A stretch of 55,927 bases of DNA from Sashavirus 536P12, in the sequence record OZ035768.1; one strand, given 5' to 3'. A program made the translations under genes and the position numbers. Position 1 is the first letter of the stretch. Every line of letters begins with the position of its first letter. Under the pieces are notes generated by a model. The model ran no database searches. It saw nothing but the letters and a program-made list of their open reading frames with translations, and was not told the DNA's origin. Below are positions 2,922 to 6,909 of this stretch, in pieces.

Positions 2922-4685
2922 ATGATTAAGTTTACTGGAAATATTCATAATTACCCGCGCTGGCGGGATGCTTACGCAAACGACGAACGTATCTGGCGAA
3001 AAGGTCATCCACGCCCGGATTACAAACAGTGTTACATTGACCGCATTAACCTGTTAAATCGTATGCGCATGGATCGGGTCATTGTCCCGGTGCTGAAAAA
3101 GTATTACGAAACAAACCCGGTAGCATTCATTCTCGACTGGGCGTTTACTTATGACCCGCGTAACGTCGGTACTGAATACCCGCCAAACATGCCTTTCTGC
3201 CTTTTCGAACGTCAGATCGACATGGTTCAGTTTGTTTACGAAGCGCTTGAAGACAAAGAAAAAGGGCTTTGGGAAAAATCGCGAGACTATGGTGCGACCT
3301 GGGTAGCCTGTGGTTTGTCCGTGTGGGCGTGGCTGTATCGTCCCGGTTCTTCAGTTGGCTGGGGATCACGTAAAGAGCAACTTGTTGATAAACTGGGCGA
3401 CCCGGATAGTATTTTTGAAAAGATTCGCCAGATTATCCGTGCATTACCACCGGAATTACGCCCTGTTGGTCTGCGTGAAAAAGACCATCTGGTTTACATG
3501 AAATGTATCAACCCTGAAAACGGTGCAACAATTACTGGCGAAGCTGGTGACAACATCGGTCGTGGTGGTCGTAAATCTGTCTATTTCTTGGATGAAGCGG
3601 CACACGTAGATCGTCCTGAACTGATTGAAGCGTCGTTGTCAGCTAACACCAACGTTCGTATCGACATCAGTTCAGTTAATGGCGTTGGTAATGTTTTTTA
3701 TCGTAATCGTAAAGCTGGTCTGGAATGGGAACCGGGTAAGAAATTACCCCGTGGTAAATTGCGTGTCATGGTTCTGGACTGGCGCGATCACCCGGCTAAA
3801 GACGACGAATGGTATAAGCGAGAAAAACAATCGTTCGCTGAAAAAGGTTTACAGCATATTTTCGCACAGGAAGTCGATCGCGACTATGCCGCTGCTGTTC
3901 AGGGTGTACTGATTAAAGCTGAATGGGTGCGCGCTGCTTTTGACGCGTTCCGTGATACAGAATGGCGCAAAGCTAACGACTTACTTACACCAACAGGTCA
4001 ACGTATCGCCGGACAGGATGCCGCAGACGGTGGTGAAGATGCAAGTGCATTGGTAATTGCTCACGGTGTATTCCTGACACATCTACAGCTTGACCACAGG
4101 GGCGCTGAACTGGCTGCACCAGGGATGTTGACGATGGCTAATATGCTGGGTGTTGATGAATACTGGTACGAAGTTAACGGTGTTGGTACAGGCGTTAAAG
4201 TAGCGGCAAATGACCGGAAAGATATTTTACGCTTCCGTGTGCGTCCGTGGTTACCGAATGGAAAAGTTGTGGATCCGGGTGGTGATATTATCGGTGGTAC
4301 GAAACCTGGTGACAAAGACCGTAAATCAAACAAAGATTATTTCTCAAATTATAAAGCACAGGCATCATGGGCGCTGCGTCTGCGTTGTCAGCGAATTTAT
4401 AAATGGTATGTGGAAGGTCAACCACAGGATCCAGACGAAATCATTCTGATTGATCCATCACTGGAAAACGCACAACGGTTAGAAGCTGAGTTAAGTCAGC
4501 CAACGTATACCAGTAACGGTGCCGGGAAGATTGTGATCGACAAGAAACCAAACGGAAGTAAGTCACCAAACTTTTTCGATGCTGCGGTTATTGCACTATC
4601 ACCAAAACGCACTGAATTTGTCGAAGAACCATTTACTGGTGGTGTGAATCCTGTTGGTACTCCTGAATACGGTGACATTTTTTAA
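2922..4685 (+). CDS. terminase large subunit (TerL)
   Basis: 587 aa; Walker A-like EKSRDYGATW, Walker B-like VYFLDEAAH, C-terminal nuclease-like region; size and position typical of TerL. Confidence 0.75.
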   Translation: MIKFTGNIHNYPRWRDAYANDERIWRKGHPRPDYKQCYIDRINLLNRMRMDRVIVPVLKKYYETNPVAFILDWAFTYDPRNVGTEYPPNMPFCLFERQIDMVQFVYEALEDKEKGLWEKSRDYGATWVACGLSVWAWLYRPGSSVGWGSRKEQLVDKLGDPDSIFEKIRQIIRALPPELRPVGLREKDHLVYMKCINPENGATITGEAGDNIGRGGRKSVYFLDEAAHVDRPELIEASLSANTNVRIDISSVNGVGNVFYRNRKAGLEWEPGKKLPRGKLRVMVLDWRDHPAKDDEWYKREKQSFAEKGLQHIFAQEVDRDYAAAVQGVLIKAEWVRAAFDAFRDTEWRKANDLLTPTGQRIAGQDAADGGEDASALVIAHGVFLTHLQLDHRGAELAAPGMLTMANMLGVDEYWYEVNGVGTGVKVAANDRKDILRFRVRPWLPNGKVVDPGGDIIGGTKPGDKDRKSNKDYFSNYKAQASWALRLRCQRIYKWYVEGQPQDPDEIILIDPSLENAQRLEAELSQPTYTSNGAGKIVIDKKPNGSKSPNFFDAAVIALSPKRTEFVEEPFTGGVNPVGTPEYGDIF

Positions 4686-4690
4686 ACAGT

Positions 4691-4724
4691 GTGGCGGGAT
4701 TATTCCCGCCCGTTTTCTTTTTTT
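4691..4724 (+). terminator. rho-independent terminator
   Basis: GGCGGGATTATTCCCGCC hairpin followed by a T-run immediately after the TerL stop. Confidence 0.7.
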
Positions 4725-4725
4725 A

Positions 4726-4760
4726 ATTCTTGACAAATTACATTATAAATGTTTGTAAAT
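4726..4760 (+). promoter_or_regulatory. promoter (partial copy of conserved element, + orientation)
   Basis: AATTCTTGACA with TTGACA at 4730-4735; -10 unclear (TGTAAAT near 4754-4760 or TATACT at 4787-4792); upstream of the strong AGGAG RBS of the gene at 4849. Confidence 0.4.
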
Positions 4761-4848: not shown

Positions 4849-5526
4849 ATGTCTGACATGACTTTAGTTCCCACTGGCGGTTTCGGCGGTGAAGCTGGCG
4901 CGGCTGCACTTGGCGGTGGCATCGGTGGTCTTATCGGTTCCTGGTTCGGTAACGGTTGGGGTGGCGGTGGTAACTTTGGTGGTCCTGTAGAAGTTCAAGC
5001 CTCTGTAGATACCAACGCTATTCTGCAAGCCATCAATAACGGTGCTCTTCAGACCATTCAGGGTCAGAATGGTACAAACCTGACCGTTGAACGCGCTGCA
5101 GCTTCCACTTTTAACGGTATCACTCAACAGAACACACAAAACCTGCTGGCATCTGTACAAGGTTTTGCAGGTCTGAACACTCAGATTCAGCAGGGTACGA
5201 ACACTGTGACCAATGCGATCTGTGCATCTGAAACTGCGGCACTGACTCGTTCTTTCCAGGCACAGTTAGCGGCTGAGAAGTGTTGCTGCGAAACCAACCT
5301 GAATATCGAACGTCAGGCAGAAGCAACTCGTGCACTGATCCGTGATCAGTTCGCACAGTCTCAGGCTGTTCTGATTTGTGACCTGAAATCTCAGATTCAA
5401 ACCCGTGACTTCCAGTTGTCTCAATTGTCACAAACGTCTCAGTTGGCGTGCAAAATTAACCAGGTCGATCAGCTTATTAACTTCAAGCTGCCTACTCCGC
5501 AAACTCCACCGACTGGCTGCTGCTAA
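4849..5526 (+). CDS. Gly-rich / glycine-zipper N-terminus, Gln/Thr-rich, Cys-containing protein of unknown function
   Basis: 225 aa; N-terminal GGFGGEAGAAALGGGIGGLIGSWFGNGWGGGGNFGG, internal CCC, C-terminal GCC; strong SD AGGAG; first gene after TerL terminator. Confidence 0.6.
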   Translation: MSDMTLVPTGGFGGEAGAAALGGGIGGLIGSWFGNGWGGGGNFGGPVEVQASVDTNAILQAINNGALQTIQGQNGTNLTVERAAASTFNGITQQNTQNLLASVQGFAGLNTQIQQGTNTVTNAICASETAALTRSFQAQLAAEKCCCETNLNIERQAEATRALIRDQFAQSQAVLICDLKSQIQTRDFQLSQLSQTSQLACKINQVDQLINFKLPTPQTPPTGCC

Positions 5527-5576
5527 TTGGTTAACTAAGCGCCTCTGTACGGGGCGCTTTAACAGGAGATAAGAGT

Positions 5577-5936
5577 ATGCATTACAAACCGTATTACGTT
5601 ATCAAAAAAGACGATGATGACGATGAAGAGGAAGATGTAGAAATTCATCACCACCATCATTATCACCACGGACATCACCCGGACACGATGGGAGTATTTC
5701 ATCATGATAGCTCTGTTAGCGAACATGGTTCAGTTATGGCCCATGTTAAAGCACGTATGGATAACCCTCCTTCGACTTGGGCGTCGTACCACGATAAGCC
5801 CGGCGGGATGATGTCCATTGTTGAAATGGAATATCGCGAACTGATGGAAGAAAAAGCCGAAGGTTCGACGTCTGGTATTAAAAAAGAGCTAACAGATCTG
5901 GCTGCAGCCTGTATCAACGCGCTTAAAAAGATGTAA
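5577..5936 (+). CDS. histidine-rich acidic protein (putative metal-binding)
   Basis: 119 aa; DDDDDEEEDVEIHHHHHYHHGHHPD natural poly-His tract; good SD (AGGAGA). Confidence 0.6.
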   Translation: MHYKPYYVIKKDDDDDEEEDVEIHHHHHYHHGHHPDTMGVFHHDSSVSEHGSVMAHVKARMDNPPSTWASYHDKPGGMMSIVEMEYRELMEEKAEGSTSGIKKELTDLAAACINALKKM

Positions 5937-5952
5937 CTAACAGGAAACCGAC

Positions 5953-6456
5953 ATGCAGAATATTAACGCAGGTATGGGTGTCACCCAGTTTAACGGCATG
6001 AAACCGCGAAGCACTATTAACATTGGTGGTGTGGAGTGGTCATTACGTCGGGATGCCACTGACTCAACAACAATGTTTCCTCATCCGAAGGTAAGCTGGC
6101 TTAACGCTGGTTGTGAACCGATGGGTGATGGTCGTTTTCATTACTGTTGGATTTTGGGTGTGATTCCCCCGACACCGGGGACAATCGAACGACCTGTTAA
6201 TGTGATGTATGTTGGTTTCCATCAATTTAAAATTAATATTGCACCTAATTCAATTAGTCAGGCTGATTTGGACAGGATGCATGTTTATGTCAGCGACACT
6301 TCACATTTTGCTGGTGAATTTGTCAGTAAGTTTTTAGGTACAGAACCTGAACCTGTGGAAACTCGTGAAAATATCAGCCCGTGGCCCCCGATGAATGATC
6401 CTCGTGAGCAACCAAAAGTAGCCAAAAATAAGGTAAACGAAGATGACGAAGAATGA
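5953..6456 (+). CDS. hypothetical protein
   Basis: 167-aa ORF in the same operon; acidic C-terminus. Confidence 0.5.
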   Translation: MQNINAGMGVTQFNGMKPRSTINIGGVEWSLRRDATDSTTMFPHPKVSWLNAGCEPMGDGRFHYCWILGVIPPTPGTIERPVNVMYVGFHQFKINIAPNSISQADLDRMHVYVSDTSHFAGEFVSKFLGTEPEPVETRENISPWPPMNDPREQPKVAKNKVNEDDEE

Positions 6457-6697
6457 AGGGGTAGACAAAGTAGTCGAAAGTCTGGGGTTACGCGCACACG
6501 TAATCGTAGACGAAGGTCACAGTCAAGAAGTGATCATGAAGTCGGCATTTAACGATTTTAAAGCGTTGGGTTCAATGAGTGGGATCATGGCAGTGATGGC
6601 TACCGGGAAATTAAGTCAGCAACAGTTAGATCTGGCACAACGTATCGCTGTGAAAGTAATTGCCGTTTTAGGTCTTAAAGAGTCAGAAAAAGCGTAA
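6443..6697 (+). CDS. hypothetical protein
   Basis: 84-aa ORF overlapping the upstream gene end (translational coupling). Confidence 0.45.
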   Translation: MTKNEGVDKVVESLGLRAHVIVDEGHSQEVIMKSAFNDFKALGSMSGIMAVMATGKLSQQQLDLAQRIAVKVIAVLGLKESEKA

Positions 6698-6710: not shown

Positions 6711-6875
6711 ATGTGTTGTAGAACATCGTGTTGTCTGGGAAGTCCTGTTACGCAATTTGGTCTTCTTCAGTCACAGATTGCACATACTCAGGTCGTTTTC
6801 AGAGGGTTTACCAGTCCGTTCATAGTACCGTTACAGTTTTCCGCGTTCACGTTTAGGCCTTTTGTATTTTACTGA
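6711..6875 (+). CDS. small Cys-rich protein (54 aa), unannotated in the ORF track
   Basis: ATG at 6711 preceded by AAGGGGG SD at 7-nt spacing; N-terminus MCCRTSCC; ends just before the terminator hairpin. Confidence 0.3.
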   Translation: MCCRTSCCLGSPVTQFGLLQSQIAHTQVVFRGFTSPFIVPLQFSAFTFRPFVFY

Positions 6876-6883
6876 TCGACTTT

Positions 6884-6909
6884 GCCCCAGACAGTTCCGG
6901 GGCTTTTTT
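6884..6909. terminator. rho-independent terminator between convergent operons
   Basis: GCCCCAGACAGTTCCGGGGC hairpin followed by TTTTTT on the + strand. Confidence 0.6.

Follow-up and report, generated by a model that had tools for sequence, protein, structure and literature searches.

A natural histidine-rich arm on a putative MazG-superfamily domain, encoded in a five-gene cassette of Sashavirus 536P12

What use could a phage have for a protein in which nine of eleven consecutive residues are histidine? The question is posed by Sashavirus 536P12 (sequence record OZ035768.1), of which we analyzed a stretch of 55,927 nucleotides (nt), called the window below, with its first letter as position 1. 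On its plus strand, where all features lie unless stated otherwise, an open reading frame (ORF) at 5577..5936, here named g2, starts with ATG and encodes 119 amino acids and a stop (MHYKPYYVIKKDDDDDEEEDVEIHHHHHYHHGHHPDTMGVFHHDSSVSEHGSVMAHVKARMDNPPSTWASYHDKPGGMMSIVEMEYRELMEEKAEGSTSGIKKELTDLAAACINALKKM); an AGGAG ribosome-binding site at 5564-5568, 8 nt 5' of the ATG, has a counterpart annotated at the equivalent position of Salmonella phages Sasha and Solent. Residues 12-22 of g2 form an acidic run, DDDDDEEEDVE (5610-5642, 10 of 11 residues acidic), and residues 24-34 the histidine tract HHHHHYHHGHH (5646-5678), exactly as an initial annotation of this DNA had described them. That annotation likened g2 to Ni/Zn-binding proteins of the Hpn/HypB kind and saw in it a metal-sequestering or metallochaperone-like protein, linked to a neighboring Gly/Cys-rich protein and a Cys-rich micro-ORF. 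The reading that we favor, with a probability of about 45%, is a different one: g2 may be a protein of two parts, in which the C-terminal 74 residues would form a metal-dependent domain of the nucleotide pyrophosphohydrolase type and the disordered N-terminal 45 residues an arm that would capture or regulate metal.

The first part of that reading begins with the fold. AlphaFold2, given a 37-sequence alignment, predicts residues 1-45 of g2 as a disordered arm (pLDDT, the predicted local distance difference test score, is ~50 there, the acidic run included), followed by three confident helices at 46-62, 77-95 and 98-118 (pLDDT 90-98) in the C-terminal domain, residues 46-119 (5712..5933). A 124-sequence family profile searched against the PDB found as its top match 2p06_A, the AF_0060 protein of Archaeoglobus fulgidus (E 4.7e-4), and hhalign of the g2 family against an alignment of AF_0060 homologs gave a probability of 95.6% and an E value of 1.3e-8 over 65 columns. 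AF_0060 itself stands above the Pfam thresholds for MazG (30.3 bits vs 22) and also for PRA-PH, and SCOP treats it as a separate family of the all-alpha nucleoside triphosphate (NTP) pyrophosphohydrolase superfamily with a conserved metal-binding motif (PMC2238974). Pfam scans of the 124 relatives of g2 reported MazG in 5 and PRA-PH in 9, all weakly (best E 3.4e-4 and 5.7e-3, respectively), Foldseek against BFVD returned weak matches enriched in phage MazG/NTP-PPase proteins, and in some records of BASEL phages the g2 ortholog is named "putative pyrophosphatase." That the domain belongs to the all-alpha NTP pyrophosphohydrolase superfamily, with the AF_0060 type nearest to it, is well supported; its membership of the Pfam MazG family proper (PF03819) is not. 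Two other sets of PDB matches were discarded: PA2G4/Ebp1, found by a first profile search (E ~0.02), covered only helix 1 and the loop and was gone with the broader profile, and single-sequence matches to the histidine tract proved to be recombinant His and FLAG tags, an artifact.

How widely is this domain shared, and which of its residues are kept? Over its full length (residues 1-119) g2 matches the PHROG profile phrog_9157 (E 6.2e-47), a family of unknown function. A word-indexed search with g2 found 36 clusters; among 1.84 billion cluster representatives a profile search found 161 at E <=1e-3; and in the GenBank-derived INPHARED collection tblastn found g2 in 114 phage records. The family statistics given here come from 124 aligned representatives, all of which match phrog_9157, and use the numbering of the window protein. 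Conservation is concentrated in the C-terminal ~70 residues, the N-terminus being variable, and gathers in three motifs: P65-x-T67-W68 (P65 in 121/124, T67 in 106, W68 in 123), M84-E85-x-x-E88 (117, 122 and 117) and E104-x-x-D107, in which E104 is present in 85/124 with Asn in 26, and position 107 is His in 88 (71%), Asp in 32 and Glu in 4. Y71 (106/124), I81 (113), A111 (119) and C112 (74) are conserved besides. In the alignment with AF_0060, E85 and E88 of g2 fall on the second and third glutamates of EExxE, and E104 and D107 on the two acidic residues of ExxD. These four carboxylates should face one another, given that helices 2 and 3 are predicted to form an antiparallel hairpin, as far as can be judged from the predicted helix boundaries. 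K93 and K103 are conserved as well in the clade with Asp at 107, to which all histidine-tract members belong; catalytic competence of the Asp-107 clade is plausible.

The second part of the reading is the arm, and the first thing to ask of it is whether so extreme a composition could be fortuitous. Histidine makes up 15 of the 119 residues of g2 (12.6%), compared with 2.8% across all stop-free stretches of the window, and no other 11-residue stretch in any frame of the window has more than six histidines; the runner-up, on the plus strand near 2040-2300, merely mirrors a minus-strand gene with an Ala-rich repeat. With p=0.028 per residue, nine histidines in eleven are expected at ~6e-13 per position, or ~1e-7 for the whole window, and the tract is far beyond chance. 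Nor is it a simple slippage repeat, since CAT and CAC codons are mixed within it and Tandem Repeats Finder (TRF) found no tandem array there; we rejected an origin by slippage or tandem repetition for that reason. An antisense ORF at 5559..5726 was likewise dismissed as a mere mirror of the Asp and His codons of g2.

Is the tract maintained? The region of the window is 95-96% identical to Escherichia coli siphophages of the Sashavirus/Nonanavirus group (vB_EcoS_AVIO78A, hereafter AVIO78A, Bas82 KarinMuster and PJ16) and 84-87% identical to Salmonella phages Sasha, Sergei and Solent; in these close relatives the g2 orthologs are all annotated as hypothetical protein. The window and Sasha agree in every one of residues 1-36, which hold the acidic run and the tract, with seven synonymous and no non-synonymous codon changes, whereas the C-terminal domains of the same pair show 13 synonymous and 11 non-synonymous differences. 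Five aligned g2 orthologs have 12 columns that are all histidine, five of them varying between CAT and CAC. Tract length varies slightly, with a deletion of four residues in one representative (P0003) and of two in phage yong3, and N-termini with an acidic run and HHHxHHHH recur in cluster representatives below 50% identity. Since the tract is never lost within the clade of g2 and its codons vary synonymously, selection acts at the level of the protein, and on this codon evidence the tract is under purifying selection. The initial annotation had held that absence or lack of conservation in close relatives, together with a lack of metal binding, would refute its idea; what we found is that the tract is kept in them.

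The same codon data bear on whether the run acts as nucleic acid. The GAT/GAC and CAT/CAC runs at 5613-5660 make up an inverted repeat of 15 nt with 80% complementarity, and a run of seven consecutive His codons is what regulates the leader of the his operon, which would make a translational sensor, or a messenger RNA (mRNA) hairpin regulating the downstream genes, conceivable here. We consider such a role very improbable: the stability of the hairpin does not exceed that of shuffled sequence (z -1.55, with 18 of 200 shuffles folding equally well), Rfam gave only a far sub-threshold match (mir-598, on the minus strand), changes between CAT and CAC and between GAT and GAC accumulate uncompensated as the amino acids stay fixed, and the protein that contains the tract has a conserved C-terminal domain as well. 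The complementarity of the Asp and His codon runs may, at the same time, be a hint to how adjacent acidic and histidine runs originated.

Seen across the family, the tract is, by its sequence distribution, a clade-specific N-terminal appendage. With a cutoff of at least six histidines per 10-residue window it is present in 15 of the 124 representatives, nine of which have an acidic run as well, and it takes forms of the (V/I)(V/I)HHH(T/V)HHHH type (DDDDDDIVIHHHTHHHHEG, EDDIEVHHHTHHHHHH, DDKVHHHHVHHHHHH and EEDDVVIHKHTHHHHHH); the family as a whole is also His-rich, with a median of 5.2%. Phages of the genera Seuratvirus and Tlsvirus have an alternative N-terminus, MSHIKIATMGMPRVKLPKVALPRISVGEHHHEHEKEE..., and elsewhere there are Arg/Glu repeats or no linker; four members (P0124, P0161, P0172 and P0175) carry long repeats of the (D/E)EMEMRRRRRS type in place of the acidic/His arm, which marks the linker as a hot spot for low-complexity expansion. 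Two members (P0010 and P0012) have a C-terminal domain 83-91% identical to that of the window behind the other N-terminal type, and phage Segz_1 shows the converse, a near-identical arm on a diverged C-terminal domain; the arm is therefore a module that recombines. By eye, a short M-(R/K)-x-hydrophobic stretch stands at the N-terminus of many family members, including some that lack the tract.

How, then, might the two parts work together? In the mechanism that we propose, E85, E88, E104 and D107 would be the carboxylates that in MazG-type enzymes hold the catalytic divalent metals, and the domain would be a divalent-metal-dependent nucleotide (pyro)phosphohydrolase or a nucleotide-binding protein. 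The arm, with its short hydrophobic N-terminal motif, its roughly ten acidic residues and its tract of nine histidines in eleven, would be a flexible antenna that captures metal (Zn, Ni, Co or Mn) and supplies it to the carboxylate site or regulates that site. A number of observations weigh against this proposal. The model itself, AF_0060, has no known biochemical activity, and SCOP ascribes to it a distinct subunit fold, a tetrameric state and a distinct active-site architecture (PMC2238974). In g2 a methionine, M84, stands where the canonical EExxE has its first glutamate, 71% of the family have His instead of Asp at position 107, no basic residue that could hold a triphosphate is conserved across the 124 representatives, and the domain has three helices instead of the canonical four. 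The window protein has no match in Pfam, even at E values up to 1, or in NCBIfam. The cassette neighbors of g2 provide no nucleotide-metabolism context. Lastly, 109 of the 124 family members have no tract, others having different low-complexity linkers such as the Arg/Glu repeats, and the arm may for that reason be no dedicated metal site but a spacer that evolves readily.

Several of these points would also suit a protein that is not an enzyme. On that account g2 would be a non-catalytic adaptor, a degenerate MazG-type scaffold that makes contacts within its cassette or with proteins associated with tail fibers, and the arm a charged and disordered linker, perhaps sensitive to pH. The methionine at the first catalytic position, the His or Asp at 107, the missing family-wide basic residue, the hot spot of unrelated low-complexity expansions in the N-terminal linker and the swapping of two N-terminal types onto nearly identical C-terminal domains all agree with it, and the M-(R/K)-x-hydrophobic motif, picked out by inspection, could be what docks onto a partner. 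However, a pure scaffold would need neither the almost invariant E85 and E88 nor a position 107 that is always a potential metal ligand. We regard the adaptor as somewhat unlikely, but as an explanation to be taken seriously, and we return to it below where the genomic position of the cassette is described.

If g2 is a pyrophosphohydrolase-type protein with a metal-capturing arm, it differs from each of the systems with which it can be compared. AF_0060 has EE where g2 has Met-Glu, is without an acidic/His arm at its N-terminus, is archaeal, and lies outside any phage cassette. Among the MazG-like pyrophosphatases of phages, Atd1 (Pectobacterium phage PcCB7V) is a small MazG-type enzyme that hydrolyzes (p)ppGpp as an anti-defense measure. 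The cyanophage MazG and MazZ of cyanophage S-2L (PDB 7ODY) reportedly remodel the pool of deoxynucleoside triphosphates. From all of these g2 is too far removed in sequence for Pfam MazG to detect it, and unlike them it has three core helices and not four, a methionine at the first catalytic position, a His/acidic arm, and a place in a five-gene cassette rather than among genes of nucleotide metabolism.

The comparison made by the initial annotation, with Hpn and HypB, stands in one respect, the density of the tract, and falls short in the other, homology: g2 has no Pfam or NCBIfam match, and the part of it that is conserved resembles AF_0060. In vitro, Ni and Zn are bound by histidine-rich tracts such as those of Hpn, the N-terminus of HypB, the C-terminus of SlyD and the His/Asp-rich loops of ZnuA-type zinc proteins; Hpn, for one, contains HHHHHHHTHHHHYHGG. 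To these g2 bears a likeness of composition only, with His runs broken by Y, G or T near acidic residues, and the composition of g2 resembles that of Hpn and the ZnuA-type loops; it differs from them in having no detectable homology to them, no GTPase, FKBP or periplasmic-binding domain and no Ni-enzyme context, its tract being an appendage on a MazG-type domain.

Could g2 nonetheless be a dedicated metal-sequestering protein or metallochaperone, akin to Hpn, HypB or the SlyD tail, that stores Ni or Zn or delivers it to the Cys-rich products of the neighboring genes g1 (CCC, GCC) and g5 (MCC..CC)? The tract beside its acidic run and the purifying selection on it, the His-rich character of the whole family, the invariant CCC of g1, the conserved Cys and His residues of g3, and the Cys-rich and syntenic g5 would all suit such a protein. 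Yet Pfam and NCBIfam show no homology of g2 with metallochaperone families, and the PDB hits to the tract were affinity tags; the tract is absent from 109 of 124 members, and the CCC of g1 is invariant whether or not the g2 alongside it has a tract. The C-terminal GCC of g1, and g5 too, are absent from cassettes in which g2 does have one (L007 and L003), and we saw no co-variation between the tract and the Cys motifs of g1 or g5. The nickel-enzyme setting implied by the likeness to Hpn and HypB was not found either: the complete AVIO78A genome, 96% identical, has no gene for the maturation of Ni enzymes (hydrogenase or urease) annotated, no Ni-enzyme genes are annotated in the relatives, the cassette neighbors have no such domains, and no metalloenzyme client is annotated in the relatives. 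We therefore think this explanation improbable.

The pyrophosphohydrolase-type reading has g2 expressed as the second gene of what would be a single transcription unit, g1-g5, and the layout of the locus is consistent with this. The cassette follows the large terminase gene, terL (2922-4685), from which an intrinsic terminator at 4693..4710, a GC-rich stem of seven pairs with a T run that is annotated in AVIO78A, separates it. A candidate sigma-70 promoter lies at 4730..4759 (TTGACA, an 18-nt spacer and TGTAAA), where AVIO78A has a promoter annotated at the equivalent site; a consensus promoter scan passed over 4730..4759, its -10 hexamer being weak. Between g1 and g2 there is a GC-rich hairpin at 5537..5559, with a 9-base-pair stem, a 5-nt loop and a short U tract, which the AVIO78A and Sasha records label a terminator. 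Its centroid fold has -15 kcal/mol and a z of -1.97, and it may be a weak terminator or attenuator, or else a hairpin that stabilizes the mRNA. The cassette is closed by an intrinsic terminator at 6884..6909 (GCCCC...GGGGC, then TTTTTT), conserved in the alignment and annotated in AVIO78A, Sasha and Solent.

For the partners of g2 the databases offer little: scans of g1-g4 returned nothing in Pfam or NCBIfam, and in PHROGs only families of "unknown function." The first gene, g1 (4849..5526, 225 amino acids, phrog_9288, unknown function), encodes a Gly-rich N-terminus, a Q/N-rich middle, a CCC triplet that is invariant in eight homologs from divergent phages, and a C-terminus ending in ...PTGCC. 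Downstream of g2, g3 (5953..6456, 167 amino acids, phrog_8329) has a predicted fold that is rich in beta-sheet and found no informative structural match, and some of its Cys and His residues are invariant or nearly so; g4 (6443..6697, 84 amino acids, phrog_7239) starts 14 nt before g3 ends. The last is the Cys-rich micro-ORF g5 (6711..6875, 54 amino acids, MCCRTSCCLGSP...), which has a GGGGG ribosome-binding site of its own. It differs from its counterparts in the 9NA/Sasha/Solent clade by 15 synonymous third-position and six non-synonymous codon changes, is annotated as 9NA gp15 and as Solent_024, and has a 67-residue homolog at the same position in CAjan (MC..T..CCLGSP.TQ.G.LQ.Q). By codon pattern and synteny g5 is a genuine gene, and in this the initial annotation was right.

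The N-terminus of g1, GGLIGSWFGNGWGGGG, followed by a Q/N-rich region that looks like a coiled coil, resembles the fusion peptide and stalk of influenza B HA2. This suggests, as an analogy at most, a membrane-active segment. The g1 profile matched PDB entries at chance level only, influenza B HA2 (E ~0.4) among them, and Pfam only weakly, and we rejected these matches.

The linkage of g2 to the Gly/Cys-rich g1, which the initial annotation had noted, holds beyond this genome, for unrelated phages share the gene order. With similar gene sizes and the overlap of g3 and g4, the series g1-g2-g3-g4 recurs in unrelated enterobacterial phages: in Seuratvirus CAjan (identities of 82% for g1, ~72% for g2 over its C-terminal domain, 77% for g3 and 73% for g4), in Seuratvirus yong3 and Tlsvirus DanielBernoulli, and in Eiauvirus eiAU, as judged there only from gene sizes and a tblastn match to g1. 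It is found also in three metagenomic phage types, namely a phage with a Mu-F-type head module, one in which a holin/endolysin module is the neighbor, and an SU10-like podophage; all four proteins are detectably homologous in two of the three, and in the SU10-like podophage g4 was matched by position and size only and g2 is without a His tract. tblastn found g1 in 180 phage records. In Salmonella phage 9NA (L013, KJ802832.1 5959-6940) a natural deletion has taken g1 and g2 together with the first third (5') of g3; what remains is g3 in truncated form (gp13), g4 (gp14) and g5 (gp15), an interpretation with which the annotation of Solent agrees, and since 9NA exists without g1, g2 and part of g3 the cassette is dispensable for lytic growth. 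To judge from this distribution, the five-gene cassette is evidently a horizontally mobile accessory unit.

Where the cassette has landed is the remaining evidence on the adaptor account of g2. In Seuratvirus, Tlsvirus and Eiauvirus it comes directly after lateral tail-fiber or tail genes, in T5-like Epseptimavirus g1 occurs alone after the gene of the L-shaped fiber, and one distant member of the g2 family lies between fiber-like genes, all of which would suit a protein that contacts fiber-associated partners. Against this, the cassette sits between terL and the portal gene in Sashavirus, and there, as in two of the metagenomic phage types, it is far from the fiber genes; moreover, 9NA, a phage long used in the laboratory, forms normal virions without g1, g2 and part of g3, which excludes an essential structural role.

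What would follow if g2 is indeed a pyrophosphohydrolase-type protein with a metal-capturing arm? Part of the picture is already known: the family is catalogued as phrog_9157, its members are sometimes called "putative pyrophosphatase," and the fold class is established. A literature search found no description of His-rich phage proteins of this kind or of the cassette, and none of the link to the AF_0060-like branch, of a natural His/acidic arm on a MazG-type domain, or of its place in a mobile cassette. If the reading is correct, it gives phrog_9157 (161 metagenomic clusters at 50% identity and 114 phage records) a testable biochemical assignment, assigns a first activity to the AF_0060-like branch of the MazG superfamily, whose structure dates from 2007 and which has remained without one, and shows how a phage enzyme could secure its cofactor in the infected cell. 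The five-gene cassette is common in well-studied genera of coliphages and Salmonella phages, several BASEL phages included. There is a practical side as well, in that g2 would bind nickel-nitrilotriacetic acid resin untagged and co-purify as a contaminant from infected cells. One may speculate further that the cassette is an unrecognized mobile, metal-dependent accessory system of phages, in which g2 couples the availability of transition metals to the hydrolysis of alarmones or immune second messengers, or loads metal onto its Cys-rich partners, and which acts in host takeover, superinfection exclusion or counter-defense; we would not expect this bolder scheme to prove right.

A few minor observations concern variants of the cassette and its surroundings. 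Damaged forms occur in the BASEL Seuratvirus SeppeHuegi (L018, 21802-22584), in which g1 is split into two ORFs, and in a metagenomic sequence (P0050) in which the N-terminus of g1 is fused in frame to the C-terminal domain of g2. Another metagenomic protein, fiber-like and 1468 amino acids long (P0049), was rejected as a family member because it scored through ~15 short repeats of IKERLDNIDSSWDYYYDK; these repeats score against the section of the g2 profile from helix 1 to P-x-T-W-x-x-Y (ARMDNPPSTWASYHDK). Finally, the minus strand of the window has at 2002-2586 an ORF of 194 amino acids in which a long Ala-rich array of tandem AARAAY/AAYDA units fills the C-terminal half (2039-2303); the underlying DNA repeats with periods of 9, 18 and 39, in ~29 copies of 9 nt, and the His/Gln-rich reading of its opposite strand is a mirror only.

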